A stretch of 64,000 bases of DNA from Actinomycetes bacterium (lineage in GTDB: Bacteria; Actinomycetota; Acidimicrobiia; Acidimicrobiales; JABEUL01), in contig JAJYFT010000001.1 in assembly GCA_021790815.1 (NCBI GenBank), positions 27,777 to 91,776 on the forward strand, read 5' to 3'. Both the position numbers and the translations under genes were made by a program. Shown in pieces: positions 5,845 to 49,259 of this stretch. The number at the start of each line of letters is the position of its first letter. The first letter of the stretch is position 1. Below the pieces are notes generated by a model, which saw only the letters and a list, made by a program, of their open reading frames with translations, was not told the DNA's origin and searched no databases.

Positions 5845-5846
5845 GC

Positions 5847-8503: not shown

Positions 8504-8516
8504 TTAACACTCCTTA

Positions 8517-24950: not shown

Positions 24951-24984
24951 TATATATGACAAGATGATAAGATTGTCATATATG
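24951..24984. promoter_or_regulatory. 11-bp inverted repeat ending on a start codon of the Ehr operon
   Basis: ATATATGACAA (24952..24962) / TTGTCATATAT (24973..24983) with a 10-nt spacer. It covers the first annotated ATG (24964) and ends at the second ATG (24982). Confidence 0.4.
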
Positions 24985-25458: not shown

Positions 25459-25460
25459 AA

Positions 25461-27461: not shown

Positions 27462-27481
27462 TATGACGAGAAAAGAGTAGC

Positions 27482-28426: not shown

Positions 28427-28427
28427 A

Positions 28428-30580: not shown

Positions 30581-30587
30581 TCTGCAA

Positions 30588-33702: not shown

Positions 33703-36474
33703 TCAGCCAGCTTTTTTAATCGAAACATAGATTGGCCGATCAACTGGAGCAGGCTGCCACTCCATAGGTGCATACCTAAGATGGCCGTATCCGCCTGCCA
33801 TATTTAACCATTTAACCATTCCAGGTTCAACTTCATTTGATCCGTCATGATTCTTAAACATGTGAGAGTCCCAACCATTGTAGATTGTTAGACCACTCGG
33901 ACGTTGAGAACTTGAAAGTTTCACTCTTACCTTATACTCTCCAACGTCATTAGATACCTCAATAAAGTCATTATCACTTATACCTAGTTCTTTTGCATCA
34001 TTTGGGTGCATGACTGCATGAGGTTCACCTCTATGGGTCTCTAACAACCACTTATTTCCCATATTCATTGCGTGAATTGACCACCTGTTATGACCGCCTG
34101 ACATTTTGAAGTAGTGATCGCCACCCATTAGAGGTGGAGACTTATGCACTGGGATATCTTCTCCAGCATCAAAAAACCAGTCATGTTCTATTAAAAATTG
34201 TGCTCTTCTAGTTAACGTCGGATAAGGTGTACCTCTCTCAATATGGTCACGAAATGGAGAGTGTGTTTCATTTTCTGGAAATGGCGAGGACTGTCCTTTA
34301 GCCATTGGCGAAATGCCCCATTCTTTGAACTTTATCCATCCATCTTTTCTTAGAGTTTCAAGTGTAGTAGCTTCTGGAAGCGTACCCGAATAAGCAGTGT
34401 CTCTCACCATCTCATTTCCAACGTCTTCATAGTTAAGTAAGTAACCATTTAATGTAAAGTTATCCCATAGCTTCGCATATGACTTGGAAATTTCTTGGCC
34501 AAACAGATCCTTCCCTTCATCAAACTTTTCAAGACCTCTCTCTGCTGCCACTTGCGATATCTTAAGTGATAGCGCTGCAAAAATCTCCCACTCATCTTTT
34601 GCCTCGCCAGGAGGTTCTGCTGCCTTATCGCTTAGCTGAAGAATTAACATAGATGGACTCGGCAGGTGAAAGTTAACCTTTTCGTAGTGCTGAGCTGCTG
34701 GAAGAAGAATGTCTGAGTTAAGACCGGTAACCGACATTCTCACGTCTACTGTAACGATAAGCTTAAGCTTGTTAAAAAGTGAGTCAATGACTACCCTTCG
34801 TCCACCTCTTGTTCTTCTAAGCATATTGCTTCCACATTCAATCAGCACTCTTAGATTTGTTTCAGGCCCAGGTTTTACTAAGCCGTCATACCAACCCTTC
34901 CCAATTGCTTCGTTTAGATAGTCATCAAAACTCTTTATCATCTTAGGATCATTAAAAGTTTTATTGTTCCAACGCTCCCGGTGTCCCTCGTGGAAGTACC
35001 ACAAGAAAAATGCGGGGAACATCGCTCTTCCACCGCTAGCAGCCATCTGCCTCCAGAGTTCAATGCTAGCTAAGACTTCATCCAGAGAAGGATCCTGATC
35101 CATCATTGCTTTTTCAACTTCTGCCATTGAGGTAAAAACATCATCAGCGCCTGCTACTCCAGGTCTCTCCTTTACCATCGTAGAAGTCTGTCCATCAAAA
35201 AGTCCTATTGCCCAGCAGTTTATCCCTGTACCTTTCTTGCCCCAATTTCCCGATATGCCAAGCAATAGATTCATCGTTCTTTGATACAGATCGGAGTGGT
35301 AGGCTTTGCAAGCTCCCATACCCATGAGAATCTTTGTTTTTTTGGTGGCAACTTTCCTGCTAAGTTGTCTTAAAAGGTCAGGATTCACCGTAGTGATGCT
35401 TTGAGTCATTTCGGGCGTGTACTCTTCATTAAGTGTTCTCTTAATCTTCTCATATAGTGGCTCAACTTCAACCTCTGAACCATCGATAAGCTTAACTTTA
35501 TAAGATCCAGTTAACTCTGCAACTTTAGAAGTTAACAGTTCAGTTTTGCTCGCCTCTTTTAACTCAAAACCAGAATTTAATTTAACTAAATGATAAAAAA
35601 GTTCCTTATCACCACCTTCTCTTAATTCAGACTCTCTCAAAAAAGTCCCTCTGTCTTTTCTGATCAAAAGGCTTAAGTCGGTCTGCGTCTTAATGAAATC
35701 TTCATCAGCTAGTCCCTCTTCTAAAATTACCTGACACATCGAAAGAGCAAGTGCTGGATCCGAACCCCATTCAACTGGAACATGATAGTCAACATGAGAA
35801 TGCGAAGGAGAAACGTCAGGTGAAAACAGTACGATCTCTCCACCATGATACCTTGACTCACTTAGATAATGAAAAAATGGTATACACGTATAGGCAGGGT
35901 TAGTGTGCCAGAGTATCAGCAGTTCTGAGTGAAATATATCATCATTAGATCCGATTGGATAAAATCTTCCGAAAGTTAAATGGTGACCAAGCGCAAGGTC
36001 GTTAATGGAGCCATTAATATCTGTTATTACGCCTCCAATTGTTCTCATGAATCTGTGAACAGCTGGAGCTACTACAACTTCAGGTGTACCTTCATGGATT
36101 ATAGATTCTGGCCCATCTTCTTCTATCGCGTCTACTATTGAATTTGCAATCTCACCAAGTGCCTCATCCCAAGTAATTCTCTCCCACTGTCCACTTCCTC
36201 TTTCTCCAACTCTCCTCATTGGGTGCAAGAGCCTGTCTTCACTGTCAAGCTGTTGTGACCATGCTGCACCTTTCTGGCACCCTAAAGGATTCATGTCAGG
36301 CACGCCTTCTTCAAAAGTTGGAAGAGTTCCAGTAACCTCTTCTCTTATGATTTTCCCGTCTTTTACATATACCCTATATGGGCAAGCTCCTGGATAGCAA
36401 TCAACACAGTGTGAACCGTGCGCAACTGAATCAAACTCAATTCGCTTTCTATATGAATCTTCTACTGTAGTCAT
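33703..36474 (-). CDS. molybdopterin oxidoreductase catalytic subunit, NarG/EbdA-like, paralog alpha-2, no Tat signal
   Basis: 923 aa. HCVDCYPGACPYRVYVKDGKIIREE ... MNPLGCQKG (H-x3-C-x4-C-xn-C). It shares many identical blocks with alpha-4. The N-terminus MTTVEDSYRKRIEFDS has no signal. Its ATG overlaps the rSAM stop (ATGA at 36471..36474). Confidence 0.85.
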   Translation of the reverse strand: MTTVEDSYRKRIEFDSVAHGSHCVDCYPGACPYRVYVKDGKIIREEVTGTLPTFEEGVPDMNPLGCQKGAAWSQQLDSEDRLLHPMRRVGERGSGQWERITWDEALGEIANSIVDAIEEDGPESIIHEGTPEVVVAPAVHRFMRTIGGVITDINGSINDLALGHHLTFGRFYPIGSNDDIFHSELLILWHTNPAYTCIPFFHYLSESRYHGGEIVLFSPDVSPSHSHVDYHVPVEWGSDPALALSMCQVILEEGLADEDFIKTQTDLSLLIRKDRGTFLRESELREGGDKELFYHLVKLNSGFELKEASKTELLTSKVAELTGSYKVKLIDGSEVEVEPLYEKIKRTLNEEYTPEMTQSITTVNPDLLRQLSRKVATKKTKILMGMGACKAYHSDLYQRTMNLLLGISGNWGKKGTGINCWAIGLFDGQTSTMVKERPGVAGADDVFTSMAEVEKAMMDQDPSLDEVLASIELWRQMAASGGRAMFPAFFLWYFHEGHRERWNNKTFNDPKMIKSFDDYLNEAIGKGWYDGLVKPGPETNLRVLIECGSNMLRRTRGGRRVVIDSLFNKLKLIVTVDVRMSVTGLNSDILLPAAQHYEKVNFHLPSPSMLILQLSDKAAEPPGEAKDEWEIFAALSLKISQVAAERGLEKFDEGKDLFGQEISKSYAKLWDNFTLNGYLLNYEDVGNEMVRDTAYSGTLPEATTLETLRKDGWIKFKEWGISPMAKGQSSPFPENETHSPFRDHIERGTPYPTLTRRAQFLIEHDWFFDAGEDIPVHKSPPLMGGDHYFKMSGGHNRWSIHAMNMGNKWLLETHRGEPHAVMHPNDAKELGISDNDFIEVSNDVGEYKVRVKLSSSQRPSGLTIYNGWDSHMFKNHDGSNEVEPGMVKWLNMAGGYGHLRYAPMEWQPAPVDRPIYVSIKKAG

Positions 36475-37760
36475 TTCTGCCTCCTTTTGGCTTTAACTTC
36501 TTTACTGAGAGCACTTTCGCTCCCCTTGAGTTCTTTTGAAACTGTACTTACTGGGAGGTTTAACTTAGCAAGCTCAACCATCCGCTTGAAAATAGGACCA
36601 GTATGCACAAAATACTGTTTGAGACCAATGCACAATTCGTGAACACCGTCACGGGCTCCGTTACGACCAACTTCATGAACAATTACATAACTGCTGCCTA
36701 ATTTCTTTCTATCTTTAGGACATCCTCCTCGACACAGATTTAGAAACTCACAAGACAAGCAATCATCACTTAATCTATCTTTCTTTGCATTTCCAAATTC
36801 CTCTTGAAAATCGGACTGAATCATGTCAATTAACTTATCGTTGGAGATATTTCCTAATAGATGCTCGTTGTTTACAAAGTGATCACATGAATACACCGAA
36901 CCATCATGTTCAACAACAAGCGCATTCCCACAAGTCTCTGCATTAATACAAAGACTCGCAGGTTTGTTTGAATGTGCTAACAGTGACTCAACAAAAGCCT
37001 GAACTATGATTGTTTCAACATCGTTTCTTACCCAAATATCAAATACAGTATTTAAAAAGTATCCGTACTGCTCAGGTTTGACTGATTCTTTTTTTAAGCT
37101 ACCATTTGAATCCCGGGCAACTATTGGAAGAAACTGTAACCAATTTGCTCCTAGACTTTTGAAGTAGTTGTATATTTCAGCCGGGTGATCAGCGTTAGTA
37201 GAATTTAAAGTACATAAAATATCAGGATTTATGCCAACTTCTAACAAGTTTTTAAACCCTTTAATTACATCTCGATGCGTTGAATACCCGTTTTTATAAC
37301 GCCTCGAAGCATCGTGTAACAATTTTGGTCCATCTAAACTCAATCCAACCCAGAACTTATTTTCGTAGAGAAACTTACACCACTCGTCATCTAACAAAAC
37401 ACCGTTAGTTTGAATAATATTTACAATCTTTTTCTCTACATCTTGCTCTTCAGCAATTCGTTTTTGAATCTCAAGTACTTCTTTAAAGAACTTAATGCCC
37501 ATTAAAGTTGGCTCACCACCATGCCAAACAAACTGAACTAATTCAAAATCTGAGGATTCAATTACATTTTTTACATAAGAATGCAAAACATCCTTTTGCA
37601 TTCTAAAATGTTCGCCTTTTTTAAAAAGGGATTTTTTTTCTAGGTAATAGCAGTATGTACAGTCCAAGTTGCATATCGGACCGCATGGCTTAACCATAGT
37701 AATAAACTCACGACTTCTGTCCTTTTTAATCTCGTTACTAAGATCTTGTGCCGTGGTCAT
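36471..37760 (-). CDS. radical SAM / SPASM-domain enzyme, anaerobic sulfatase-maturase (anSME)/QhpD-like
   Basis: 429 aa. CNLDCTYCYY radical SAM cluster motif near the N-terminus, GGEPTL, and C-terminal auxiliary-cluster motifs CGNALVVEHDGSVYSCDHF and CLSCEFLNLCRGGCPKDR. Confidence 0.85.
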   Translation of the reverse strand: MTTAQDLSNEIKKDRSREFITMVKPCGPICNLDCTYCYYLEKKSLFKKGEHFRMQKDVLHSYVKNVIESSDFELVQFVWHGGEPTLMGIKFFKEVLEIQKRIAEEQDVEKKIVNIIQTNGVLLDDEWCKFLYENKFWVGLSLDGPKLLHDASRRYKNGYSTHRDVIKGFKNLLEVGINPDILCTLNSTNADHPAEIYNYFKSLGANWLQFLPIVARDSNGSLKKESVKPEQYGYFLNTVFDIWVRNDVETIIVQAFVESLLAHSNKPASLCINAETCGNALVVEHDGSVYSCDHFVNNEHLLGNISNDKLIDMIQSDFQEEFGNAKKDRLSDDCLSCEFLNLCRGGCPKDRKKLGSSYVIVHEVGRNGARDGVHELCIGLKQYFVHTGPIFKRMVELAKLNLPVSTVSKELKGSESALSKEVKAKRRQK

Positions 37761-37771
37761 TTTCTCACCGT

Positions 37772-37870
37772 TTACGTCGCCAATTCTTCAGAATTACAAT
37801 TCTTACTATTTATCAACACCGAGTTGCACTTCTTTCCAGCGAAAACTCCCGTGTAGTAAAAGTCCGTCAT
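37772..37870 (-). CDS. candidate 32-aa Cys-containing peptide upstream of the radical SAM gene
   Basis: Below the ORF-track cutoff. ATG 37870..37868 overlaps the upstream TGA (ATGA). It encodes MTDFYYTGVFAGKKCNSVLINSKNCNSEELAT with a repeated K-x-C-N-S motif. TAA lies 11 nt before the rSAM ATG, with GGTGAG in between. A chance ORF is not excluded. Confidence 0.4.
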   Translation of the reverse strand: MTDFYYTGVFAGKKCNSVLINSKNCNSEELAT

Positions 37871-40302
37871 GTTTTCATTTCTAACTTAACTAAACCTAAC
37901 TTTGAATCTATTTCGTCTCTTTCGGGACAAAAGCTTCCGCCTAGATGCTCTGTAGATAATGATGCTGCAACGTTTGCCACCATAATTGCACGATCAATCG
38001 AATCCCCTTTTGAAAGTGCAGCTAAAAGCGCACCTGTATGAATGTCGCCTGCGCCTGTTGTGTCTACCACAACACTCGTTATTGTCTTTACATGAAACAC
38101 TTTCCCAGAACTGTCGTTATAGTAACATCCGTCATCCCCATGTCTTAATACCACTAGACCATCTTTCTTAATAAACCCAGAAAGTGTTTTTACTTGGTCA
38201 AATGGATCGTCTTGCCCAGTTAGGATATTCGCCTCAGTTTCATTCAGAGTCAGAATGTCAGTATGCTTAAGTGCTTTCCTCAACTCTTCTGTTCCAGGTG
38301 AGATAGGGCCTGGATCAATTACTATCGTACGGTCAATCGAATTATCTTCAATGAAGGATTTAATAGTAGGACCGCTAACGTCATAGAGTAGGTCGTAACC
38401 TGACACATATATAAAGTCTCCACTTCTGACGTGAACTTTCTCCAAGTCACTAGCCAACAGTTTCGATTCAATCCCAGGAGAAGTTATAAAAGTCTTTTCC
38501 CCATCTTTTTCTACAATACCAACGGTAAAACCTGAATCACCTTGTTTCGAAATACCAAGTGGTGCTTCGACCCCTTTAAATTCAAGATCTCGTGCTACAG
38601 TAAGCCCGAAAGGTCCATTCCCAACGTTACCTACGTACTGACTCTTTAGGCCCAACTTACTAGCAGCAGATAGAACGTTGTAGCCACCCCCAGATGATAT
38701 CTGCTTTCCTGTTGCGAATATATCTTTCCCTCTTACTGGCAGCGTGTCAGAATAAAGCAAAACATCTACCAAAATCGATCCCACTACCAACAACCTTGAT
38801 GGGGTGTCTATTTCATTACGCACTTTGCTTCTAAGATATTTTTCAACAGCTTCACTTGCGCCAACTTCACTTGCGCCGACTTCACTCAGGCCAGTCTCTT
38901 CTAGTTGCCTAATTAAAGTATCTGAATTAAAATGCGTTTTTCTCTTTATGATCAAAGACATCACAATATAGACGAAAGAGGAAATTAGAAATGCCACTAC
39001 GAAACCAAAACTTCCACTTCCTATAAATCCTACTGCTAAAGGTCCTTTAAACCAGGGGCACGTAGTCGCAAGAAGTCCAATACTTGAGCCCACAAAAAGT
39101 GCAGCTAGCCCACTCATATTTGCATGGAAGAGATCAGATGAATTCGATAACATATATTGTGTCGTTCGTTTCAAATATCTCTTCAATAAGTAGTCAGCAA
39201 TTACAACTCCACCAAACGCAGCTAGAAAGGCTGCCAAAAGAAGCAGGAAATTTTCAAAATCTTGCGTAATGGATGAACTCACAAATATTAAATAACTCGA
39301 AACTCCAAGTACGATTGCTGCATCAACAAATACAGTGAAAGTTCTTTTAATCGGAACCCTTAAAGCAAGAAGATTAAGTCCCGATGAGTAGCAAGCTAGA
39401 TCAGTTTCTAATATCATGCCTCCGCATGCAGATAGAAATAAAGGTACTGCAAAAAGTAGCGGAACCCCTACCCCTAAAACCGCTACTGGGTTCAAGGTTG
39501 CATCAAGACTGCCGTACTTAGAACTCAATAAATATCCTGCGAGAACTAGAACACTCACAGGGACTGATGATGCAACTACAACTGAAGTAAAGAGTTTCTT
39601 TGAACTTAAACTGCGTGGAAGATACCTGCTGTAGTCGCCAGCTAAATTGATCCAGCTAATTCCCGTTCCAGCCGCAATGATACTTATTGCAATTAATACA
39701 TCATTGAAACTTGATGGCTTAGCATTAGGCAACGAAGTATGTTTTATGAGAATGTAAACAACTACCAACACAGTAAGTAATCCAAAAATATAAGATGCAA
39801 CTTTTTGAAACTTTAAAATTACCCTGTGACCGAAATACCCTAATGCCAACGAAACAGATACTACGACTATTACGCAGATTATTTCACTTGTCTTACTGAC
39901 AGGAATCTTAAATATATCGTTTAAGAGTGCAGATAGCGACCATGCAGCAAGAACTGTTGTGATAGCCTCCCAGCCAAGAATGTTCACCCAACTAACAATT
40001 GTTGGAACAAAGTTTCCCGACTTACCGAACGCAACCTTTGAAGATGTGAGAGTTGGCAAGCCAGAGTTCTTCCCAATGACAGAGACCATCCCAACTAAAA
40101 TGAATGACCCAAACGATCCAATTACTGTAGCTGCGATTGCCTGGGAAAGATTTAGTCCAAGTTGAGCGATTATTACGCCAAAAACTAGTGAAAGTATCCC
40201 AATATTTGCCCCAAACCAAACCCACGCCACAGAACTAATGTTCCCAGCTCTCTCGCTATCTTCTACTATCTCTATACCTTTTATCTCTTTAATCATGGAC
40301 AA
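37867..40302 (-). CDS. fusion protein: NCS1 (purine-cytosine/vitamin permease-like) transporter + PfkB/ribokinase-family kinase
   Basis: 811 aa. Residues ~1-455 are polytopic (about 12 TM, NCS1/CodB-like start ...VAWVWFGANIGILSL). A linker holds SEVGASEVGASE. The C-terminal ~320 aa has PfkB motifs SSGGGYNVLSAASKLG and DTTGAGDIHTGALLAAL. Confidence 0.75.
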   Translation of the reverse strand: MSMIKEIKGIEIVEDSERAGNISSVAWVWFGANIGILSLVFGVIIAQLGLNLSQAIAATVIGSFGSFILVGMVSVIGKNSGLPTLTSSKVAFGKSGNFVPTIVSWVNILGWEAITTVLAAWSLSALLNDIFKIPVSKTSEIICVIVVVSVSLALGYFGHRVILKFQKVASYIFGLLTVLVVVYILIKHTSLPNAKPSSFNDVLIAISIIAAGTGISWINLAGDYSRYLPRSLSSKKLFTSVVVASSVPVSVLVLAGYLLSSKYGSLDATLNPVAVLGVGVPLLFAVPLFLSACGGMILETDLACYSSGLNLLALRVPIKRTFTVFVDAAIVLGVSSYLIFVSSSITQDFENFLLLLAAFLAAFGGVVIADYLLKRYLKRTTQYMLSNSSDLFHANMSGLAALFVGSSIGLLATTCPWFKGPLAVGFIGSGSFGFVVAFLISSFVYIVMSLIIKRKTHFNSDTLIRQLEETGLSEVGASEVGASEAVEKYLRSKVRNEIDTPSRLLVVGSILVDVLLYSDTLPVRGKDIFATGKQISSGGGYNVLSAASKLGLKSQYVGNVGNGPFGLTVARDLEFKGVEAPLGISKQGDSGFTVGIVEKDGEKTFITSPGIESKLLASDLEKVHVRSGDFIYVSGYDLLYDVSGPTIKSFIEDNSIDRTIVIDPGPISPGTEELRKALKHTDILTLNETEANILTGQDDPFDQVKTLSGFIKKDGLVVLRHGDDGCYYNDSSGKVFHVKTITSVVVDTTGAGDIHTGALLAALSKGDSIDRAIMVANVAASLSTEHLGGSFCPERDEIDSKLGLVKLEMKT
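38851..38890. repeat. 15-bp in-frame tandem repeat in the inter-domain linker
   Basis: TTCACTTGCGCCAAC / TTCACTTGCGCCGAC / TTCACTCAGG... encodes (SEVGA)x2 SE on the minus strand. Confidence 0.8.
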
Positions 40303-40331: not shown

Positions 40332-41519
40332 TCAAACTTCATCCAATATATAAAGCATCCCATTTGGATCTGACGCAGCAAGCGCGCCTGTTACTAAATG
40401 ATTTCCAACGTAGTTTGAACTATCACTCTGCGGAATAGCTAAAGATGGCGAGTAAGCTAAAATCATCGCCTGATCTAGAAACTCCCATAACGCGTCAATT
40501 ATTTCATTCGTATCTGGATCCGCAGGGTTAAGGTTCATATTTGGTAAAGGAATTCCAGTTGCTTCATCTAAGAACCAAGTCGGATGAGAAGCTAACATGG
40601 GTCCAGATTCCGCCATTCCATAGAGTGTGAGCGCTTGGCCAACGAATCCTGAAATCTCTCTTCTTAAATCAGGAGAGAATACTCCTTCAACTCCAATTAC
40701 CGCTGTTTTGAACGTTGATGGTCTTCCCTTTCGCCCTAGTGACAGGATATGTGATTCCGCCGTTTCAATCGGGAGAATCAACCAACCTAAAGATGGATCT
40801 TTGAAGTTCTCAACAAAGTGATCTTGAGTATCACTAAGTGTGTAGACACTCTTTGAATACAAAGCTGACACCAACGAAGTAAAACCCTGCCACGTGCCGG
40901 GAGAATAAGTACTAAGCCAGCCACTTCCTTCGCTTTGAGAGAAAAATGCTGCAAATGAAAGTCCTGAAGCAAGCAGCGATCTATTTGAATGCCAAGCATC
41001 TCCAAACTTGCCACTAAAACAGATATGCGGGAACCTGAGTTTTCCAATATTGATTAACCCGTCCTCACTGCTTTGACTTTCATTACCCACAATTTCATCC
41101 AGGCTCACAACTTTTCCTGCATCAAACCCTGACCCTAACGAACCTAGATCGTCAGTTAAAACTAGAGAGGGATTAATCTGGTTAGCTTTATAAGCCTCGT
41201 TCTTAGGGTAGAGATAGACATTACAGTTCGACTCTACTGCTCCTAGAGCAAGGATCGCACCCTGAGGAGTTGCACCGATTACAATTGCAACTTTTCCGTT
41301 TTCACTTGCTGCCGAGTTTATATAACATTTGACTTTTTCGACGAGATCCCGGACCTCTTTATACGTATAATTGACGCCTTGACCTCGTAGTGCAATCTGA
41401 TCACTATTTATCCATCTATCAACACCAAGTTCAATAATTGAATAAGGTGGAACTCCGATAACTCGACTAAGTCCTTCCGGCCAATACCAACTTGGGGTAG
41501 TAGCAATTGTTTTTGGCAT
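40332..41519 (-). CDS. ANL (acyl/aryl-CoA synthetase)-like N-domain protein with degenerate motifs, C-terminal subdomain absent
   Basis: 395 aa. YTYKEVRDLVEKV substrate-paragraph-like start. The P-loop position reads FSGKFGDAWHS instead of SGTTGxPKG. LYGMAESGP stands for YGxTE. The protein ends ...TGALAASDPNGMLYILDEV, where the hinge and C-domain would begin. Confidence 0.55.
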   Translation of the reverse strand: MPKTIATTPSWYWPEGLSRVIGVPPYSIIELGVDRWINSDQIALRGQGVNYTYKEVRDLVEKVKCYINSAASENGKVAIVIGATPQGAILALGAVESNCNVYLYPKNEAYKANQINPSLVLTDDLGSLGSGFDAGKVVSLDEIVGNESQSSEDGLINIGKLRFPHICFSGKFGDAWHSNRSLLASGLSFAAFFSQSEGSGWLSTYSPGTWQGFTSLVSALYSKSVYTLSDTQDHFVENFKDPSLGWLILPIETAESHILSLGRKGRPSTFKTAVIGVEGVFSPDLRREISGFVGQALTLYGMAESGPMLASHPTWFLDEATGIPLPNMNLNPADPDTNEIIDALWEFLDQAMILAYSPSLAIPQSDSSNYVGNHLVTGALAASDPNGMLYILDEV

Positions 41520-41530
41520 TTAATACCTCC

Positions 41531-42067
41531 TTATTTCGATATCGCTTGTGACCATGCAAGTGTAAATACTGCAATTAACGCAATACTCAATTCAGCTTTT
41601 AGCAACAGGTCCATTTTCTTGATGCTTTTGCGCCTTCTCAGTTTCATCTCTTCTAATGATAACTCTGCATCTTTTAACGAAGCTCTTTTATGAGAATTAG
41701 GATGAAGTTTCACACCCATTAGCATTACAACTACAACCAGACCTACCCAACAAACTGCACCAATTGCACCTTGAAGATAGGTAACTCCCTTTATGCCAAG
41801 ACTTCCAGAGCGAAAAAACTCATGGTCAGATAGGCCAAGCAAAATCCAGCTAATCCCAATAACACTCAAACTAGATAAAGCAACCCACTTATACTTCTCA
41901 CCCATCTTTTCACACAAAACAGCTGTTTGCTGTGGAGCTAATCCCTTTTGAAGAGGTTTCCAAACTATTGCCATAATAAGTGCACCGCCAATGTAAATAG
42001 CCCAAGAGGCGCTAAAAAGAAAATTAAATATAGTTTGAGCGCTACTGGATATTGCTATAACTTTCAC
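41531..42067 (-). CDS. 4-TM membrane protein, paralog B (CopD/DUF-like)
   Basis: 178 aa. Same topology and GG-containing first helix (SASWAIYIGGALIMA) as the upstream paralog, but without the His. Basic amphipathic insert before the last TM. Confidence 0.55.
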   Translation of the reverse strand: MKVIAISSSAQTIFNFLFSASWAIYIGGALIMAIVWKPLQKGLAPQQTAVLCEKMGEKYKWVALSSLSVIGISWILLGLSDHEFFRSGSLGIKGVTYLQGAIGAVCWVGLVVVVMLMGVKLHPNSHKRASLKDAELSLEEMKLRRRKSIKKMDLLLKAELSIALIAVFTLAWSQAISK

Positions 42068-42600
42068 TAAAGTATACCGTTTCCGTAAACCATTGAGGCA
42101 CCGAGCAGTACAATAAACAGAGCAACTCCAAGATCTATTCTTGTAATTAGCGACACTTTTTTAGCAGCCTGGATTTGTGCTTCTAAGTTTGCCTGAACGC
42201 CTGCCCCTCCTCCTTTAGAAGAAGCCTTCTGATTTAGTCTCGGCCTATATATAAATGTAATAATTGCACCATTTATAACCAATACCAACCATAAAAACAT
42301 CATTGCAAACAGTGTTCTACCATAGGTTGTCGTAAAAAATTGTGTCCCACTAACTACACTCTGATCCTGGATACCAAAAAACAGTAGCATGCCACTTATG
42401 GGGAATACAACAAGTGCACTCCAAACTAAAATCAAAAATTTATCAGCTGATTTTTGACCTATTACTTGCGCCTGGGCAGGAGGAATAAACTTTTGTGCTG
42501 GGCCCATTATGAACTCCATGGCAACCGATCCTCCCAGATACACTGCAACTGCTAAAAGGTGCAAATAGGAAGCCACAATTCTAATCCAAGTCGCTGTCAT
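42067..42600 (-). CDS. 4-TM membrane protein, paralog A (CopD/DUF-like, His in TM1)
   Basis: 177 aa. First helix IVASYLHLLAVAVYLGGSVAM resembles CopD/HemJ-type helices. Its stop overlaps the start of paralog B. Confidence 0.55.
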   Translation of the reverse strand: MTATWIRIVASYLHLLAVAVYLGGSVAMEFIMGPAQKFIPPAQAQVIGQKSADKFLILVWSALVVFPISGMLLFFGIQDQSVVSGTQFFTTTYGRTLFAMMFLWLVLVINGAIITFIYRPRLNQKASSKGGGAGVQANLEAQIQAAKKVSLITRIDLGVALFIVLLGASMVYGNGIL

Positions 42601-42609
42601 AATTATTTT

Positions 42610-44088
42610 CTATCCTTTCTTATAGGGATCAACACTTCCTTCGTGGAAGTCATTAAAGTGGCTTAGAATCTGCGGTGTAATTGCGTAGCCGTCTCCATTT
42701 TCTGTGTAGTACTGACGATAAAAATCAACATCAATGTGATGCACTTGAGCTGAAATTTTTGCTCTGACAGGGTTTATATGTGAAGGTGCACAGCCATACT
42801 TATTAACTATGTATTCGACCGTTTTTGTAGCAGCCTCAATTGCCCAATCTGAGACGTATGACTTAGGATTTTTTAGTATTTCTTCTAAAACATCTTTTTT
42901 GTACGGACCGCCAACGTGATCCAAAAAGTTGTCTTCCCTTGAGAATGCTGACCCTTTCTTGTTCTTAAGGTCCACTACATATTCAACTGCTGACCGTGCA
43001 TCTTTGAACTTAGTGCAAGGCACCATGACTGATTCTTTAAAACCTTCTAAACCTTGACAAGTTTGAGTGGTCGAAGGATTGGTCTTTGGGTCCCTAGTCA
43101 AAAATGAAAAACCTAAGCCTTGAGTAATCTCTGGATAGGCACCGAGAACTAAATCATCTGCATAGCTTCCCGTCATCCAAGCTCCTAGCCCAAGTGCTTC
43201 AGAGGCAAGGCGAATATTTTGAACTATCGCGCCAACTTGACCAGCGTGAAGCATAAGTGCAAGTTCGTCAAACGCTGGGATTGGAAATCCAACCTCTAAA
43301 AACCCTGGCTTAATCCATTCTTGACAACCTGCAGGTTCATTGGTGTCAGGATCCAAAAGGTAAAATCCAGACCATTCGTAAGAGATTAAAAGTTGGTTGA
43401 ACCACTCAACCCCAACATCACCAATAGGCAAGAACCATGTACTTCCAGGCCGATTTAGATTATACTGACCAGGACCAGTTGCATTTACTATCTTGGTTCC
43501 TTCGGGCGATGAAGGCCAGCTAATTTTTGGTCGTTCTTTTGAAACTACAACTTTGCCAGAGCGGTAGTAATCAAGAATCTTATGAAAATCCTCTTCACCT
43601 TTTATCTCAACAAGACTTAAATCTTCGCTTGGAGGACGATAGATTGACACACCGTCATCATTTATTATAAATAGTTCAACACTCAAATCATTCGAAGAGG
43701 ATGGAACTGTTCGTCCAACGTACGATAAAAGACCTGAAAGTGCTCCATTAACAGGAATATCACCGAGTATTAGCCCATTAGGCCCTAGCGCAGCCCAACA
43801 AATTAAAGCCTCCTCAAGTTCACTTAAGGGTACTGGTTCTCTAGTCGAAACATAGTTAAGCGGACCTTTTGCCTGCGTTGCAGGTTTTTCACTTGACCAT
43901 TCGAAGTTCTCTTGCTCTCCTGACTCAATTTGATAACCTAGCCCGACTCGACGAGTTCTAAGAGTAGTAAGTAGATTGAAAAAACTACCAGTTCCATTAA
44001 ACGCTTTCTTAATCTGGCTAAGTTGAGACTCTGTTATCTCATCAGAGACACTGTCATTTGATAACGAGTCTTTTTTCTTGAAAATCAT
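42610..44088 (-). CDS. large nitroreductase-superfamily (SagB/ThcOx-like) flavoprotein
   Basis: 492 aa. LRTRRVG ... PLSELEEALICWAALGPNG and HAGQVGAIVQNIRLASEALGLGAWMTG fit nitroreductase-fold signatures. Its start overlaps the stop of alpha-3. Confidence 0.55.
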   Translation of the reverse strand: MIFKKKDSLSNDSVSDEITESQLSQIKKAFNGTGSFFNLLTTLRTRRVGLGYQIESGEQENFEWSSEKPATQAKGPLNYVSTREPVPLSELEEALICWAALGPNGLILGDIPVNGALSGLLSYVGRTVPSSSNDLSVELFIINDDGVSIYRPPSEDLSLVEIKGEEDFHKILDYYRSGKVVVSKERPKISWPSSPEGTKIVNATGPGQYNLNRPGSTWFLPIGDVGVEWFNQLLISYEWSGFYLLDPDTNEPAGCQEWIKPGFLEVGFPIPAFDELALMLHAGQVGAIVQNIRLASEALGLGAWMTGSYADDLVLGAYPEITQGLGFSFLTRDPKTNPSTTQTCQGLEGFKESVMVPCTKFKDARSAVEYVVDLKNKKGSAFSREDNFLDHVGGPYKKDVLEEILKNPKSYVSDWAIEAATKTVEYIVNKYGCAPSHINPVRAKISAQVHHIDVDFYRQYYTENGDGYAITPQILSHFNDFHEGSVDPYKKG

Positions 44089-46838
44089 CAGGCTTCCTCT
44101 CTAACTTTTTCAATACTTACCGCAATTGCCCTGTCGACAGGGACAGGCTGCCATCCAAATGGCAAATAACGTAGATGACCGTACTTGCCAACTAAGTGAA
44201 GCCATTTCACCATCCCTGGTTCAACTTCATTTGCGCCTTGCCAGTCTTTAAAAGCATGCGGCTCAAATCCATTGTAGACAATTAATTGCTTGGGTCTAAC
44301 CCTAGCTGAAACTCGAACAACTCCTTTAAATCCACCGTGATCATTAAATACCCTAGCCTCGTCGGTATCTCCAATCCCGCAAGCTTTCGCATCACTTACA
44401 CTCATTACTATGATTGGCTGGCCTCTGTGAGTTCCGAGTAAGTCTTTATTCCCCATGCTGACTGCGTGGACAGTCCAACGGGAGTGTCCACTCGTTAGAA
44501 CAAAATCTCCAGTTCCCCCCATGGAAGGATTTTCTTTGTGTCTTGGCAGGTGTTCGTCAGCGTCAATAAACCACTGGTGGTCAATGTAAAACTGGGCTCT
44601 TCTTGTAAGAGTTGGGAATGGAAGTAGCTTTTCAGTATGCCAGGTGAATGCAGTCATTACCTTATCTTTTTTAACGTCAGTTGCAACAGCTAGTCCTGGA
44701 GCGAACATCCCAAGAGAAGTGAATCGAAGACCGCCAACACTTTTAAGCGTTTCAATAGAGCTACCAATTGGCAAAGTTCCTGCATCTGCTGAATCACGAA
44801 TCCATTCGTCGATTATTGCTTCTTCATTTGAAAATGCACCATCTAAATCAAACTGTTCTCTTAGATTATCTAAACGCCTCTCTTGTCGACGTCCATCCAT
44901 AAACTCTACGACACCTTTTTCTTTAGCAATTTTGCTTACCCTTTCACAAAGCAGAGTAAATATTTCCCACTCCGTTTTTGATTCACCTCTCGGTTTTACT
45001 GCTTCTTCACTGTATTGGACTCTTAAGGTATGCGTTATTGGGTACTGTACATTAGGTCTTTCATACTGCATCGCGGCAGGCAAGACAATGTCTGCATTTA
45101 GTGCAGTTGAAGACATTCTGATATCAATTGCAACTATTTTCTCAAGCTTAGGCCAGAGCTTTTCGATTAATATTTTTCTTCCTCCACGAGCTCTTCTGAT
45201 TGGATTTGTCCCAACTGCAAAGAATAGCTTGGGTGGATTATTAGACTGGGGCCGTGAAATTCCTCCCCACCAACCTCGCCTGATCGCGTCATCAAAGTAA
45301 GCACTAAACGGCTTTGTCATTGCAGGATCTGACCAAGATTGGTTGTTCCAAGAATCTTTGTACCCTGCGTGATAGTAGTTAAAAAAGAGCGGGGGTGAGG
45401 AAGTACCCTTTGTTGTTGAAAGCTGAAGCATCTGATTACCAAGCATTTCGTCAGTTGCATCTGGTTCCTTCTGTCTCATCTGATCCATCCCCATGTCTAT
45501 GCCATCCAACAATCTTGCAGTCTCTTCGACACCCTTTTTCGTCTTCATTGAAAACAGCATGTAACCATCTAGTCCCGCTAGTGCGAGACCTTGGATGCCC
45601 GTACCAGGTTTGCCCCAGTTTCCACTTAGGCCTAGTATCAAACACATTGCCCTCTCCATAAGGTCGCCGTGGTAGTACTTGGGAGCATTAAATCCCTCAA
45701 GTATTTTTGTCTTGCTCGTCGAAACCATATTAGCTAGCGTTCTGATGGAATCCGGTGAGACTCCACAGATCTTAGAAGCCATTTCAGGTGAGTAATCAGC
45801 TACTCGTCTTCTTAAAGAATCAAATACAGTCTCAACTTCAACCTCTTTGCCATCTTGAAGTTTTACTGAAGAAATTGCTGAAAGTTCAGGAACTATGTCA
45901 CCTAGATTGAGCGTAGCTTTTGGAGCTAAAACTAATTCCTTATCTTTATTCATGAAGTAAAACTGCTCTTCACTGCCGCCCTTAACGACATCACGTTCTC
46001 TTAAAAATCTATCTGTATCTTTACGGATCAGGAGTGGTAGGTCAGTTTGGGTTAAAACAAATGATTTGTCAAACTTTTCTTCCTCAATTAGAACGTAAGC
46101 GATAGATAGAGCTAGTGCAGCATCAGTTCCAGGAGTAATCGGAAAGTAAAAATCAGAGTTCACTGCAGATGCATTGAAATCAGGCGCAATTGTCACGACT
46201 CTTGCACCATTATATCTTGCCTCAGTAATAAAGTGATGATAAGGGATCGACGTATAAGCTGGATTTGAATGCCAAAGCAAAAGCAGATCTGATTTAAAAG
46301 TATCATCAACTGTACTAGCACATGCAAACTTTCCAAAGGTGATGTGATGACCAATTGGAAGGTCATTTACTAGCCCTTGAGCATCTAAGGTTATTGCACC
46401 GATTAGAGAAGCAAATCGCAGAAAGGAAAGTTGGCCCATCAACCCACCTTCAACACTTTCCTCAAAGACTATTGATTCTGGACCATATTCGTCAATTGTT
46501 TCTACTATTGAAGTTGCAATTTCGTCAAGTGCTTCATCCCAAGTGATCCTTTCGAACGCACCATCGCCTCTTTCCTTTGTTCGGCGCAAGGGATAAAGAA
46601 CCCTATCTTCACTTTTTAGCTGTTGCGACCAAGCGCTTCCTTTTTGACAACCTAATGGATTTAGATCTGGAACGCCTTTCTCAATTAGATCAATCGAGCC
46701 GGACTGCTCTTCGAATAACACTTCACCGTTGCGAGTATACACACGATAAGAGCAATTTGCTAGACAGTTAAGACAGTGGGTTCCCCATGTAGTGCGGTCC
46801 CATGTCCACTTCGACCTATATTGATCGACACTTTCCAT
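44088..46838 (-). CDS. molybdopterin oxidoreductase catalytic subunit, NarG/EbdA-like, paralog alpha-3, no Tat signal
   Basis: 916 aa. HCLNCLANCSYRVYTRNGEVLFEEQSG ... LNPLGCQKG (H-x3-C-x3-C). Closest in motif style to alpha-1. The N-terminus MESVDQYRSKWTWDRT has no signal. Confidence 0.85.
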   Translation of the reverse strand: MESVDQYRSKWTWDRTTWGTHCLNCLANCSYRVYTRNGEVLFEEQSGSIDLIEKGVPDLNPLGCQKGSAWSQQLKSEDRVLYPLRRTKERGDGAFERITWDEALDEIATSIVETIDEYGPESIVFEESVEGGLMGQLSFLRFASLIGAITLDAQGLVNDLPIGHHITFGKFACASTVDDTFKSDLLLLWHSNPAYTSIPYHHFITEARYNGARVVTIAPDFNASAVNSDFYFPITPGTDAALALSIAYVLIEEEKFDKSFVLTQTDLPLLIRKDTDRFLRERDVVKGGSEEQFYFMNKDKELVLAPKATLNLGDIVPELSAISSVKLQDGKEVEVETVFDSLRRRVADYSPEMASKICGVSPDSIRTLANMVSTSKTKILEGFNAPKYYHGDLMERAMCLILGLSGNWGKPGTGIQGLALAGLDGYMLFSMKTKKGVEETARLLDGIDMGMDQMRQKEPDATDEMLGNQMLQLSTTKGTSSPPLFFNYYHAGYKDSWNNQSWSDPAMTKPFSAYFDDAIRRGWWGGISRPQSNNPPKLFFAVGTNPIRRARGGRKILIEKLWPKLEKIVAIDIRMSSTALNADIVLPAAMQYERPNVQYPITHTLRVQYSEEAVKPRGESKTEWEIFTLLCERVSKIAKEKGVVEFMDGRRQERRLDNLREQFDLDGAFSNEEAIIDEWIRDSADAGTLPIGSSIETLKSVGGLRFTSLGMFAPGLAVATDVKKDKVMTAFTWHTEKLLPFPTLTRRAQFYIDHQWFIDADEHLPRHKENPSMGGTGDFVLTSGHSRWTVHAVSMGNKDLLGTHRGQPIIVMSVSDAKACGIGDTDEARVFNDHGGFKGVVRVSARVRPKQLIVYNGFEPHAFKDWQGANEVEPGMVKWLHLVGKYGHLRYLPFGWQPVPVDRAIAVSIEKVREEA

Positions 46839-46851
46839 GTAAAACCTTTCA

Positions 46852-47508
46852 TTAGCCGAGAAGCGACGTTATATATTTAAAATCTGCTTCGACAAATGCA
46901 TTAAGTCTGGTAAGGCCCCAATTGAAGGGGTCAGCAGGATTAAGTGCGACTGCCTTGTCAACTATATTCGGTATTTTATTAACTAAATTCTGCTCTAAAA
47001 AGTCGCGCTGAGCTCGTCTGTAGGAACCTTTAAGTCTTGGAGAAGGAGACGCAGCTTCTTTAAAACACACGTACTGCATAAAATCAAGCGCAGTTGATAG
47101 ATGATCGAGTTTTTTGTCCTCTCCAACCCCTAAGCCAAAGTACTCATAGTCACGTTTTAGCTGTGCAATTACATTTTCATCATCACCAGCTAATAGAAGT
47201 GAGCCAGCACCTAATTCATCACCAAAAACTCTTACATACTCGCCCTTGTAGTCATCGAACGTTGAGCCTTCTTTGATAGAAGGAACACCAGTATCAAATT
47301 CAAAGGGTAGCAAAGAGGCTGACTCTTTCATCTCTTTATCAAGGTGATCATTGATTGCCTTGTCATACTGCTCCTGACACACTGGCTGGAAGAAACTTCC
47401 AAGAACCATATAAACTGCAGATCTTGCTGTAGTTTCGTTCTCTTCAACTTCAAGCGGACCACCGTCTTGAGTCTTAATCTCTAATCCTGATAGTGAAAAT
47501 GTAAACAT
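46852..47508 (-). CDS. TorD/NarJ/EbdD-like assembly chaperone (delta subunit)
   Basis: 218 aa. EYVRVFG and DHLSTALDFMQY match the family blocks (E..rLF, DHi..eLeFm..L). Position is after the beta subunit. Confidence 0.7.
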   Translation of the reverse strand: MFTFSLSGLEIKTQDGGPLEVEENETTARSAVYMVLGSFFQPVCQEQYDKAINDHLDKEMKESASLLPFEFDTGVPSIKEGSTFDDYKGEYVRVFGDELGAGSLLLAGDDENVIAQLKRDYEYFGLGVGEDKKLDHLSTALDFMQYVCFKEAASPSPRLKGSYRRAQRDFLEQNLVNKIPNIVDKAVALNPADPFNWGLTRLNAFVEADFKYITSLLG

Positions 47509-47519
47509 ATTCTCTCCTT

Positions 47520-48632
47520 TTAATTCTTGCGAGTAGCACCTAGCGTGACTGCTACCTTTTCTGGACTTCTATCCAGCGTTCCAGGGTCAACAGTATATTT
47601 GCCAAATAGGTCTAGCCAGTTGTAAACAATAAGCGTATCTAAAATTTCCGAACTATTTCCTTCTCGCACACCTTTAAGTTCAGATTGAATCTTGCCAAGT
47701 GCTGAGTGGACTTGAGGACCAAAAAGGTACTCTAGGTATTCGGGTGGAATCCTTGGAGTTTCATAGTCTATCGACATGTCTTCCTTTAGGCTGTAAGGCG
47801 ACATCGGTGGAATATAGAAAATATTGGGTTCAGTTCCGAATTCTGGATGAAGCGGAAGTGCGACCTTCCATTCATTGACTAGTTTATAAATGGGTCCTGA
47901 CTTGTCCTCTGGGTCTCCAACAAAAACCAGTCTTCCAGGACACTGCCTGGCACAAGCTGGTGCAACATTTTCTTCAAGGCGGGGGAAGCACATTATGCAG
48001 TGTTGGGCAACGTCTCTAACGTAGTTAAAGTAGATCTTCTTGTATGGACAGGCTTCCATGCAGAACCTTGCACCTTGGCACTTTGACTCATCTCGCAATA
48101 CAACCCCATCTTCGTGTCTTTTGTACATCGCTCCAGATGGGCACGCTGTAACACAAACTGGGTTGGTACAATGGTTGCATAGCCTTGGTAGGTAGAAGTA
48201 GTAGGAGTTTGGATATTCACCAGCACCCTGGTCCTCATCCCAGTTCATACCCCATTCGGTAGTCTTGTCTCCCTTGTCTATTGGATGCAAGTGGGTTGAA
48301 CGGCCTTTCCCGCCGTAAAAAACCTCTTCGTAGTTAAAGTCCCATCCTCCACCAAACTCGGCGCGCGTGGGCTGATGCCCTTTTGCTGGTTGACCGTCAA
48401 TAATACCTCCTCCCATCTGTTCCCAGTCTTTGGGAGTCCCTTTGCCAGGTTGCGTATTACACGTCATCCACCATTGGTGTTCTTCACCTTGTTCTTGCGT
48501 CCAAAGTACTTTACACGCTATTGAACAGGTCTGGCATCCCATACACTTATTGAGATCAAAGACCATAGCAACTTGACCCCTCTTTGATGACTTGTCCGCC
48601 TCGTTTGTAGCTGTTTCATTTGTAATTGTCAT
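47520..48632 (-). CDS. iron-sulfur beta subunit (NarH/EbdB-like, four Fe-S cluster motifs)
   Basis: 370 aa. CMGCQTCSIACK, CNHCTNPVCVTACP, CQGARFCMEACP, CIMCFPRLEENVAPACARQCP. Confidence 0.9.
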   Translation of the reverse strand: MTITNETATNEADKSSKRGQVAMVFDLNKCMGCQTCSIACKVLWTQEQGEEHQWWMTCNTQPGKGTPKDWEQMGGGIIDGQPAKGHQPTRAEFGGGWDFNYEEVFYGGKGRSTHLHPIDKGDKTTEWGMNWDEDQGAGEYPNSYYFYLPRLCNHCTNPVCVTACPSGAMYKRHEDGVVLRDESKCQGARFCMEACPYKKIYFNYVRDVAQHCIMCFPRLEENVAPACARQCPGRLVFVGDPEDKSGPIYKLVNEWKVALPLHPEFGTEPNIFYIPPMSPYSLKEDMSIDYETPRIPPEYLEYLFGPQVHSALGKIQSELKGVREGNSSEILDTLIVYNWLDLFGKYTVDPGTLDRSPEKVAVTLGATRKN

Positions 48633-48653: not shown

Positions 48654-49259
48654 TTAGATTTCGATCCAATTTGACGATACTGCACCTATCCCGGCCCTCT
48701 CATTGTTTGAGCCATCCCAAACAACAATGCCAAGCTTTCTTGATCCTTCAACAATGTTCTTGCCTCCAGAAATTACAACACTCCATTTGCCATTCGATAG
48801 GCTAGCTTCGGCATTAACTGATTGTGATCCTTCAACCGGATGGAATACACCTGGACCGCTTGAAATTAAATCCGTAGAGTTTGACAAACCTGACTGAAGC
48901 TCAGTTCTGTTCTTCCACATCCAAAGTCTGACTGGATTTGATTTTGTCCCAATTGTTTCTGGAGATTCTGAAGATCCTGACTCAGGGAAAAATACTCCAG
49001 CCGCATCTTGAAATTCAATGTTTGGCTCATTTGAATCATCCCATTCAAGCCTAACAAAAACCTGGTTGTCATGTTCAGCTACGGATAACGATACTTCTCC
49101 TACGTTGCCGTAAGGAGTGTCTTTATAAGCATTCCTAATATACTGATTTGGCTGGGCATCCACTGGCACAGGTTTAAGTTTTATAACTTCTTTACTGACC
49201 TCTGACCACACTGAAGAGCTCGGGTTTAGCGGACTCTCACCTACTGTTTTTAATTCCAT
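48654..49259 (-). CDS. EB_dh/DOMON-like gamma subunit (EbdC/SerC/DdhC type) without signal peptide
   Basis: 201 aa. VSLSVAEHDNQVFVRLEWDDSNEPN ... DAAGVFFP ... NPVRLWMWK ... VVWDGSNNERAGIGAVSSNW follows the ethylbenzene-dehydrogenase gamma pattern. The N-terminus MELKTVGESPLNPSS is not a signal peptide. Confidence 0.65.
   Translation of the reverse strand: MELKTVGESPLNPSSSVWSEVSKEVIKLKPVPVDAQPNQYIRNAYKDTPYGNVGEVSLSVAEHDNQVFVRLEWDDSNEPNIEFQDAAGVFFPESGSSESPETIGTKSNPVRLWMWKNRTELQSGLSNSTDLISSGPGVFHPVEGSQSVNAEASLSNGKWSVVISGGKNIVEGSRKLGIVVWDGSNNERAGIGAVSSNWIEI

Follow-up and report, generated by a model that had tools for sequence, protein, structure and literature searches.

A conserved gene module links a second ethylbenzene dehydrogenase-like catalytic subunit to four uncharacterised accessory proteins

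The 64,000-nucleotide stretch of DNA analysed here (the window) comes from an Actinomycetes bacterium of the class Acidimicrobiia and carries a cluster of nine genes for a molybdoenzyme resembling ethylbenzene dehydrogenase (EBDH). The fifth gene encodes a second catalytic subunit, alpha-3, and the four genes directly behind it encode a nitroreductase-like (NTR-like) protein, two CopD-like four-helix membrane proteins (A and B) and an ANL-like protein. We find that alpha-3 and these four genes form a five-gene module, and that the module together with the alpha-A, gamma, beta and delta genes constitutes a conserved nine-gene system. The module is entirely uncharacterised, robust and phylogenetically broad, with a hypothetical mechanism, and no description of it was found in the searchable literature. 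We regard it as close to certain that alpha-3 and the four proteins work together.

Starting from the NTR-like protein, relatives were found in 97 of 185,579 species-representative genomes, and 80 loci were listed and examined, all of them from metagenome-assembled genomes (MAGs). All six-frame open reading frames (ORFs) of these loci were scored against the window proteins, and counts were restricted to loci with enough contig sequence. The loci belong to Acidimicrobiia/Microtrichaceae, Chloroflexota (Dehalococcoidia and relatives), Solirubrobacterales, and Alpha- and Gammaproteobacteria, and the source habitats of these lineages are soil, groundwater, wastewater and the sea. On one strand, alpha-3 is followed by the NTR-like gene, the two CopD-like genes (A before B) and the ANL-like gene, an order that is nearly invariant in 82 related loci. 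An alpha gene lies directly 5′ of the NTR-like gene in 70 of 71 loci, and its best match among the three tested window alphas is always alpha-3. CopD-like A is next in order in 79 of 80 loci, CopD-like B in 68 of 74 and the ANL-like gene in 66 of 70; the exceptions are one frameshifted assembly, one locus with B relocated, and the Solirubrobacterales. Annotated contigs give a matching gene order. Many of the loci are related, so that the counts are not independent events, and more weight attaches to the distribution over five class-level lineages.

The association was also recovered from the other members. A reverse look-up from a distant CopD-like match led to the same cassette, and all three metagenome-contig orthologs found from alpha-3 (~60% identity) precede the four genes. 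More distant alphas directly precede the four genes in none of 15 cases, and four of the 15 lie beside a cassette as a convergent second operon. In 11 loci from four lineages, the NTR-adjacent alpha shows 54–70% identity to alpha-3 and 43–47% to the other paralogs, while the alpha heading gamma-beta-delta in other phyla shows 52–80% identity to alpha-A and 42–46% to alpha-3. By these identities, the alpha beside the NTR-like gene is a separate orthologous lineage. The two alpha lineages and the four accessory genes have thus travelled as one cluster. The original prediction had tied the four genes to alpha-3 and looked to co-occurrence with alpha-type genes for a check; the co-occurrence is there, with the order kept across five lineages. 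A housekeeping-family assignment, the other outcome it had named, was sought in Pfam and model scans and found for none of the four proteins.

The four ORFs of the original description were confirmed at their coordinates and lie on the minus strand (Table 1). Alpha-3 overlaps the NTR-like gene by 1 nt, stop on start (TGATG), and so does CopD-like A with B (TAGTG); both overlaps had been described originally. The remaining intergenic gaps in the four-gene stretch are 9–11 nt, and a GGAGG site lies 6 nt upstream of the ATG of the ANL-like gene. The overlap between alpha-3 and the NTR-like gene recurs in loci L003, L008 and L089. These start/stop overlaps point to coupled translation of alpha-3 and the accessory genes. 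The length distributions of the matches gave no sign of natural fusions, be it among the four proteins or with alpha-3; over-long ORFs in the locus scan are an artefact of longest-ORF calling in high-GC genomes.

When all neighbouring ORFs of the 80 loci were clustered, no further partner family turned up in more than 18 loci; lineage-specific families (acyl-CoA dehydrogenase, nitroreductase, thiolase, Rrf2 and second chaperones) make up the top clusters. The Solirubrobacterales cassette carries, in place of paralog B, a 240-aa soluble protein together with a PaaK-like ANL protein. In the example from a Solirubrobacteraceae MAG (L075, 11998–16608), the 240-aa protein has no Pfam match, the PaaK-like protein has 468 aa and a P-loop-like TSGTLGFP, and a peptidase-U32-family protein comes after the ANL-like gene.

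As judged from profile matches and alignments, the catalytic core belongs to the EBDH-like branch of the type II dimethyl sulfoxide (DMSO) reductase family, but with neither the Tat (twin-arginine translocation) export nor the haem-ligating gamma subunit of the characterised enzymes. alpha-A scores 792 bits with TIGR03479 and 681 bits with the EbdA model. alpha-3 scores 839 bits with TIGR03479, below the subfamily cut-off of 985, and aligns full-length to EbdA (2IVF_A, E=4e-210, residues 5–911). It keeps the position of the Mo ligand Asp223, and the H-x3-C...C motif of the N-terminal His/Cys cluster (FS0) is present. Full-length alpha homology, the Asp Mo ligand, the His/Cys motif and the presence of beta, gamma-like and delta genes are shared with EBDH (EbdABC(D)), p-cymene dehydrogenase and steroid C25 dehydrogenase. 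By homology, the Mo/Fe-S enzyme would use water to hydroxylate a hydrophobic substrate, possibly an isoprenoid or a lipid. One beta/gamma set is shared by several alpha paralogs, a situation also reported for the steroid C25 dehydrogenase isoenzymes. The four-gene accessory module has, to our knowledge, no counterpart in the EBDH, Cmd or S25DH operons.

Since the alphas lack a Tat motif and the gamma subunit lacks a signal peptide, the enzyme system is predicted to be cytoplasmic. alpha-3 begins at EbdA residue 66 and so has no Tat signal, and alpha-A carries no Tat-like motif. When the N-termini of orthologs were extended to the longest ORF, which adds a median of 20 residues, no RR motif was found in the 34 alpha-3 and nine alpha-A orthologs in which the anchor motif was located. 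The gamma-like protein has a hydrophilic N-terminus. In contrast, the characterised EbdA, CmdA and S25dA are listed as periplasmic (PMC10100899). Two further differences from the EBDH family are the serine that alpha-3 carries at the position of EbdA His192 and the loss of the Met/Lys haem ligands from gamma.

Aligned to EbdC (2IVF_C, E=1.6e-8), the gamma-like protein of the window has Ile in place of the haem ligand Met108 and Gly in place of Lys201. Among 45 cassette-linked orthologs, Lys201 is kept in none (all 45 have Gly or Ala) and Met108 in ten. Control gammas from the convergent alpha-gamma-beta operon in Dehalococcoidia have Met in 16 of 16 and Lys in 11 of 16; because these controls keep the ligands, the loss is specific to the cassette system. 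The original prediction had noted that alpha-3 has no gamma of its own, which understates the case, as the only gamma of the cluster appears haem-less. In a separate observation, a recognisable gamma gene is missing in L008, L069 and L071.

The neighbour clustering of the 80 loci revealed no recurring cytochrome, NarI-type protein, quinone reductase or transporter, and a small 4Fe-4S ferredoxin-like ORF recurs in only eight of 80 loci. Unless the four accessory proteins provide it, the conserved unit thus appears to be without a canonical electron exit. The earlier suggestion that the twin membrane proteins may be a membrane dock or electron exit is indirectly supported by the absence of Tat and Sec signals, the ligand loss in gamma and the absence of another conserved carrier, and we infer a role in electron transfer.

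The first accessory protein is, by fold prediction, a very divergent nitroreductase-fold protein. PF00881 matches only residues 282–312 (E=0.004, 17.8 bits, cut-off 23.5). A single-sequence search of the PDB gave nothing useful and a profile was needed; the best PDB sequence match has E=0.018. At least 219 clusters of homologs at 52–65% identity occur across phyla, nearly all named hypothetical. An AlphaFold2 model built with 56 sequences (pLDDT 83, pTM 0.89) was matched by Foldseek to the PDB entries 3hoi, 8cqs and 3hj9 (E=1e-4 to 6e-4, probability 1.0, target TM-score 0.5–0.6). ThcOx, BmdC and McbC rank after these small flavin mononucleotide (FMN) nitroreductases, and AlbA is also among the structural neighbours. 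The model and the fold search thus bear out the original assignment to the nitroreductase superfamily, while the narrower label SagB/ThcOx-like fails: TIGR03605 scores 16.5 bits against a cut-off of 78.4, and ThcOx (TM-score ~0.27) ranks below the small nitroreductases. No YcaO/cyclodehydratase and no partner from ribosomal (RiPP) or nonribosomal (NRPS) peptide synthesis was found among the Pfam matches of the scanned window ORFs or the recurrent neighbour families, nor is a precursor peptide annotated nearby.

The NTR-like protein is probably FMN-binding. Its invariant residues are R44, T45, R46, R47, G125, R126, T127, P129 and N291–G302 (GLG motif). We take R44-T45-R46-R47 to resemble an FMN-phosphate site of the RxxR type. 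In weak HMMER matches, GRTxPSSSN of the family profile falls onto the APSxxN motif of 8cqs, 3hoi and 8uc3, and the profile aligns weakly but consistently to the QN..LA.EALGLG helix-strand and the PSxxN strand. The core fold is shared with the FMN nitroreductase superfamily, which includes the azoline oxidases ThcOx, SagB, McbC and BmdC, and the two elements can be recognised. At ~2.5 times the size of the best-matching small members, the NTR-like protein differs in carrying an extra ~120 residues as an insertion and ~140 residues as a His-rich C-terminal extension, and in having a molybdoenzyme as partner. Four histidines of the extension (H450, H451, H477 and H482) are invariant or nearly so.

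Searched against 1.84 billion representatives, the NTR-like profile finds 558 clusters at E<=1e-3 and 61 at E<=1e-30. Distant relatives (26–28% identity, 430–460 aa) from cultured Rhizobium, Haladaptatus, Nonomuraea and Rhodobacter occur without the cassette and retain the RxxR, GRT, GLG, Q.HH and H....WH motifs. On pRetR611c of Rhizobium phaseoli (L091, 3729–10245), the NTR-like homolog is the last gene of an operon with an animal-haem-peroxidase protein, a RoxA-like cytochrome c and a 195-aa membrane protein. In the 863-aa protein P0352, an MpaB/Lcp rubber-oxygenase domain is fused to an NTR-like domain. These single cases suggest, as partners of the family, redox enzymes for the oxidation of hydrophobic substrates. 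A general pairing of NTR-like and CopD-like proteins outside the cluster is not supported, as the distant relatives have no cassette and the Rhizobium 195-aa protein is not CopD-like (hhalign probability 0.2%).

The two membrane proteins are paralogs with four transmembrane (TM) helices, as originally described: BLASTP aligns B to A at 24% identity (E=3e-9), and the AlphaFold2 model of A has four long helices (pLDDT 87). A scores 36 bits with PF05425 (CopD; cut-off 32.1), and all 57 tested members of its family match CopD, with weak matches to DUF4149, DUF2269 and DUF2214. B has no Pfam match in the window, and its orthologs have weak CopD matches. The full-length CopD equivalog NF033808 (~295 aa) gives 19.4 bits against a cut-off of 195, with only profile positions 144–285 covered. 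CopD-like A thus shares the PF05425 match and a conserved first-helix histidine with CopD and the related membrane families DUF2269, DUF2214 and DUF4149. The pair differs from canonical CopD in its half length, its two diverged paralogs and its place in a molybdoenzyme operon, and neither CopC nor cop genes are annotated in the neighbourhoods examined. A PDB fold search with the CopD-like model returned only generic helical bundles (E>0.2), so that a cytochrome-like fold is neither supported nor excluded.

Invariant residues in 79 sequences of CopD-like A are H14, Y21, E29, Q43, W60, R119 and D156, with His14 present in all 79; those of B are W22, M32, C52 and H122. It had been predicted that only the first protein has a His in the first helix. 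This is correct for the present genome, where B has Phe, but not for the family: B carries the histidine in 24 of 24 Chloroflexota, seven of seven Proteobacteria and 14 of 41 Acidimicrobiia. A haem held between two first-helix histidines is weakened as an idea, since the second His is missing here and in many Acidimicrobiia. An analogy with HemJ was dropped, as none of 57 members matched HemJ (UPF0093). In both families, Lys and Arg are plentiful in the loops that follow helices 1 and 3 (residues 32–54 and 119–154 in A), which by the positive-inside rule suggests that the conserved loop motifs of A and B face the cytoplasm.

The last accessory protein has the N-terminal core of the ANL superfamily (acyl-CoA synthetases, NRPS adenylation domains and luciferases), from which it differs by the loss of the P-loop, the A7 Asp and the C-terminal domain. 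PF00501 scores 29 bits on the window protein (cut-off 29.9) and PF13193 does not match; most orthologs have a precomputed PF00501 match. A single-sequence PDB search was again of no use and a profile was required. The family profile matches adenylating enzymes of the PDB at E=1e-13 to 1e-6, with gramicidin synthetase, MenE and malonyl-CoA synthetase at E=1e-13 to 2e-6; for malonyl-CoA synthetase, the match takes in residues 15–395 of 503, the N-terminal part. The PROSITE AMP-binding signature PS00455 is found in none of 102 members, while a control ligase in L008 is positive with IIYTSGTTGDPK. The Asp position of the A7 motif TGD reads TG[VAL]. An A5-like YGxAE(S/T)G motif is retained, and the family-specific N-terminus MPKTIATTPSWYWP is invariant or nearly so at every position. 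The proteins stop a median of four residues past the NGMxY motif, i.e. at the hinge, and the C-terminal domain, hence the A10 Lys, is absent from the family members. The original prediction of an ANL fold without a working P-loop, ending at the hinge and probably unable to adenylate, agrees with these features; judged by its motifs, the protein cannot adenylate and is best called a pseudoenzyme. On sequence and fold comparison, the accessory proteins fit the nitroreductase, CopD-like and ANL groups at the superfamily level only, and each fails the features of a functional family.

In our tentative reading, to which we give somewhat less than an even chance, the module docks on the membrane and transfers electrons in place of the haem b exit. 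The products of the four genes would be dedicated partners of alpha-3. The two CopD-like proteins would form a heterodimeric membrane dock with their conserved positive loops toward the cytoplasm, and the conserved polar residues and the Lys/Arg-rich loops of the pair fit such a cytoplasmic docking surface. The NTR-like FMN protein would sit on this dock as the electron carrier between the Fe-S chain of the enzyme and an acceptor, either soluble or on the membrane side. Quinone could be that acceptor, with a His-ligated cofactor of the CopD-like pair on the way to it, and so could O2 at the flavin. The module would thereby stand in for the haem b exit lost by the gamma subunit of the system. 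The ANL-like protein may be a structural adaptor or scaffold, or a ligand-binding subunit. A precedent for contact between an ANL core domain and a nitroreductase-fold oxidase is the BmdB–BmdC pair of bacillamide synthetase, in which BmdC docks on the ANL core domain in a way that may resemble the NTR-like and ANL-like pairing; BmdC and BmdB occur among the fold and profile matches of the NTR-like and ANL-like searches. The NarGHI-type respiratory nitrate reductase offers a likeness, with a cytoplasm-facing, Asp-ligated Mo-bisPGD (molybdenum bis-pyranopterin guanine dinucleotide) alpha subunit and an Fe-S beta subunit that need a membrane partner for quinone. The catalytic dimer of NarGHI docks on the di-haem membrane protein NarI, whereas the system described here has no NarI homolog; its candidate anchor is the CopD-like pair, with at most one conserved TM His each, plus the flavoprotein and the ANL pseudoenzyme. 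What the analysis shows is the gene order, the orthology, the folds, the loss of catalytic motifs and of the haem ligands, and the absence of export signals; the contacts between proteins, the bound cofactors, and where and in which direction electrons flow are inferred. The boldest version, in which the NTR-like protein, the CopD-like heterodimer and the ANL pseudoenzyme together are an unrecognised membrane electron-exit module of cytoplasmic molybdenum hydroxylases, leading to quinone or O2 in place of a haem b gamma or NarI, is doubtful.

Electron transfer is preferred because it covers the cytoplasmic location, the loss of the haem ligands and the absence of another carrier. Several points weigh against it. 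The gamma subunit could bind haem through other residues, and its Tyr40 and Tyr50 are invariant. FMN binding by the NTR-like protein is argued from weak motif matches, with a Pfam score below the cut-off, and the distant relatives of this protein in cultured organisms stand alone, with no cassette. The fold search with the CopD-like model gave no significant match, and we know of no haem, quinone or metal binding by CopD-family proteins. The first-helix His of B is dispensable in many Acidimicrobiia, this genome included, and the twin-membrane-protein arrangement is not obligatory, because the Solirubrobacterales lack paralog B. The model is at its weakest on what the ANL-like protein does. 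Moreover, one beta and one gamma subunit serve two alphas, and the model gives no reason why alpha-3, and not alpha-A, has the module.

A different function for the same proteins would be substrate handling, with the module belonging to a pathway. The CopD-like pair would tether alpha-3 for the uptake of membrane-dissolved lipid, isoprenoid or steroid without carrying electrons, the ANL-like protein would bind an acyl or isoprenoid chain, and the NTR-like protein would do the next step, e.g. a dehydrogenation or an ene-reduction. This is possible but on the unlikely side. The characterised relatives act on ethylbenzene, p-cymene and the steroid side chain (PMC10100899), and the window or related loci encode KstD/phytoene-desaturase-like FAD enzymes, SCP2, acyl-CoA dehydrogenases, thiolases, enoyl-CoA hydratase and true acyl-CoA ligases; these lipid-catabolic neighbours, however, are lineage-specific and lie outside the conserved core. 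ThcOx, BmdC, McbC and AlbA, among the structural neighbours of the NTR-like protein, oxidise substrates, and its distant homologs stand with, or are fused to, haem enzymes that oxidise lipids or polyisoprene. The P-loop-like TSGTLGFP of the PaaK-like ANL protein in Solirubrobacterales hints at acyl activation, yet every adenylation motif is lost in 102 of 102 ANL-like members. Substrate handling also leaves a cytoplasmic enzyme with a ligand-less gamma without an electron acceptor, and coupled translation better suits a complex of fixed stoichiometry than a pathway neighbour.

The four proteins could also be maturation, activation or repair factors specific to alpha-3 that are not part of the working enzyme, which we consider improbable. 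They might insert or reductively activate the cofactors (Mo, or Fe-S kept reduced in aerobic hosts), or the CopD-like proteins might supply a metal. CopD-family proteins are annotated as copper-handling membrane proteins, and the four C-terminal His of the NTR-like protein and Cys52/His122 of paralog B are possible metal sites; against a metal supply, the neighbourhoods examined have no annotated CopC partner and NF033808 scores far below its cut-off. In ~10 Acidimicrobiia loci the gene next after the ANL-like gene encodes a radical-SAM/SPASM protein, and the window has such a gene at the second position after it; the haem oxygenases that accompany distant NTR-like homologs may need reductive activation. 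On the other hand, a dedicated NarJ-type chaperone is already encoded, four extra conserved proteins in apparent stoichiometry with alpha-3 would be unusual for maturation factors, and alpha-A, with the same cofactor needs, is not directly followed by such genes. That the four are unrelated housekeeping genes beside alpha-3 by chance, for which only the weak single-sequence Pfam scores speak, is next to impossible, and the finding that each single protein and the gene order are conserved excludes it: the order is kept in ~80 loci of five lineages and in both search directions, none of the four has a housekeeping assignment, and the NTR-like family is small for the 1.84 billion representatives searched, with its 558 clusters.

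The nine genes and the next three lie in one co-directional row, namely alpha-A, gamma-like, beta, delta, alpha-3, the four accessory genes, a permease-PfkB fusion, a radical-SAM/SPASM gene and a further alpha (Table 1).

Table 1. Positions of the nine-gene cluster and of neighbouring features in the window
Feature	Position	Strand	Size	Remarks
alpha-A, EBDH-like type II DMSO-reductase-family catalytic subunit	49270..52086	-	938 aa	first of the nine-gene cluster
gamma-like subunit	48654..49259	-	201 aa	TIGR03477, 82.5 bits
beta, four-cluster Fe-S subunit	47520..48632	-	370 aa	TIGR03478, 450 bits; Fer4_11
delta, NarJ/EbdD-type assembly chaperone	46852..47508	-	218 aa	TIGR03482, 88 bits; PF02613
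alpha-3, second EBDH-like catalytic subunit	44088..46838	-	916 aa	heads the five-gene module
NTR-like protein	42610..44088	-	492 aa	divergent nitroreductase fold (predicted), large insertions, His-rich C-terminal extension
CopD-like A, four-helix membrane protein	42067..42600	-	177 aa	PF05425, 36 bits
CopD-like B, paralog of A	41531..42067	-	178 aa	GTG start; BLASTP match to A
ANL-like pseudoenzyme (predicted)	40332..41519	-	395 aa	ANL N-terminal domain, without P-loop and C-terminal domain
Permease-PfkB fusion	37867..40302	same direction as module	811 aa	downstream of the ANL-like gene
Radical-SAM/SPASM gene	36471..37760	same direction as module		two genes downstream of the ANL-like gene
Further EBDH-like alpha	33703..36474	same direction as module	923 aa	after the radical-SAM/SPASM gene
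Complex-I-like or group-4-hydrogenase-like membrane module	24964..32120	+		
Fourth EBDH-like alpha and neighbours	3079..13806		921 aa (alpha)	
Two-component system	1001..3075			adjoins the fourth-alpha group

The fusion protein combines an NCS1 cytosine/purine-type permease with a PfkB-family kinase, and elsewhere it has only a weak match in L024. The radical-SAM/SPASM gene overlaps the start of the further alpha by 4 nt; its homologues follow the ANL-like gene in ~10 Acidimicrobiia loci, and its product may be an alpha-subunit maturase. A DUF3237 protein is encoded directly after the ANL-like gene in L008 (13756–14226) and L089 (10158–10652), and a cluster of 164-aa ORFs occupies the DUF3237 position in six scanned loci (representative L078). 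In Microtrichaceae (L001, 233–7162), the alpha-3 module precedes alpha-A/gamma/beta/delta and MobB lies before the module; upstream is a divergent haem-biosynthesis block (HemN-like, ferrochelatase, HemY-like and CtaA).

Farther along the window, the complex-I-like or group-4-hydrogenase-like membrane module encodes NuoB-like, NuoH-like and weakly NuoK-like proteins, two antiporter-like subunits and a NuoC/NuoD-like fusion, which also weakly matches the NiFe-hydrogenase family; no NuoEFG-type input genes were seen there. The fourth EBDH-like alpha has 38–41% identity to the other alphas, and its neighbours are four phytoene-desaturase/KstD-like FAD proteins and an SCP2 sterol-carrier-like protein. 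Isoprenoid or steroid-type substrates are suggested by the position of this alpha with KstD-like FAD proteins and the SCP2-like protein.

EBDH-type enzymes use water, not O2, to hydroxylate unactivated C–H bonds, and they are known from a few cultured anaerobes as periplasmic, haem-containing complexes. What is described here suggests a cytoplasmic and apparently haem-less form of the enzyme that has a second dedicated catalytic subunit and, in four uncharacterised proteins, its own partners; the whole is conserved as a block in uncultured lineages. If the partners are its exit or dock, they would represent a new wiring of a complex iron-sulfur molybdoenzyme to the respiratory chain, with a first redox role for CopD-like four-helix proteins and a structural role for a dead adenylation domain. 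The CopD-like family and an orphan nitroreductase family would then have a testable function, and a concrete gene set would be available for heterologous expression of a potentially useful hydroxylase. The five-gene module is a marker for tracing such metabolism in metagenomes. It is tempting to speculate that the largely uncultured Acidimicrobiia, Chloroflexota and marine Proteobacteria that carry it, many of them from oxic habitats, would be capable of intracellular, O2-independent C–H hydroxylation of lipids or isoprenoids.

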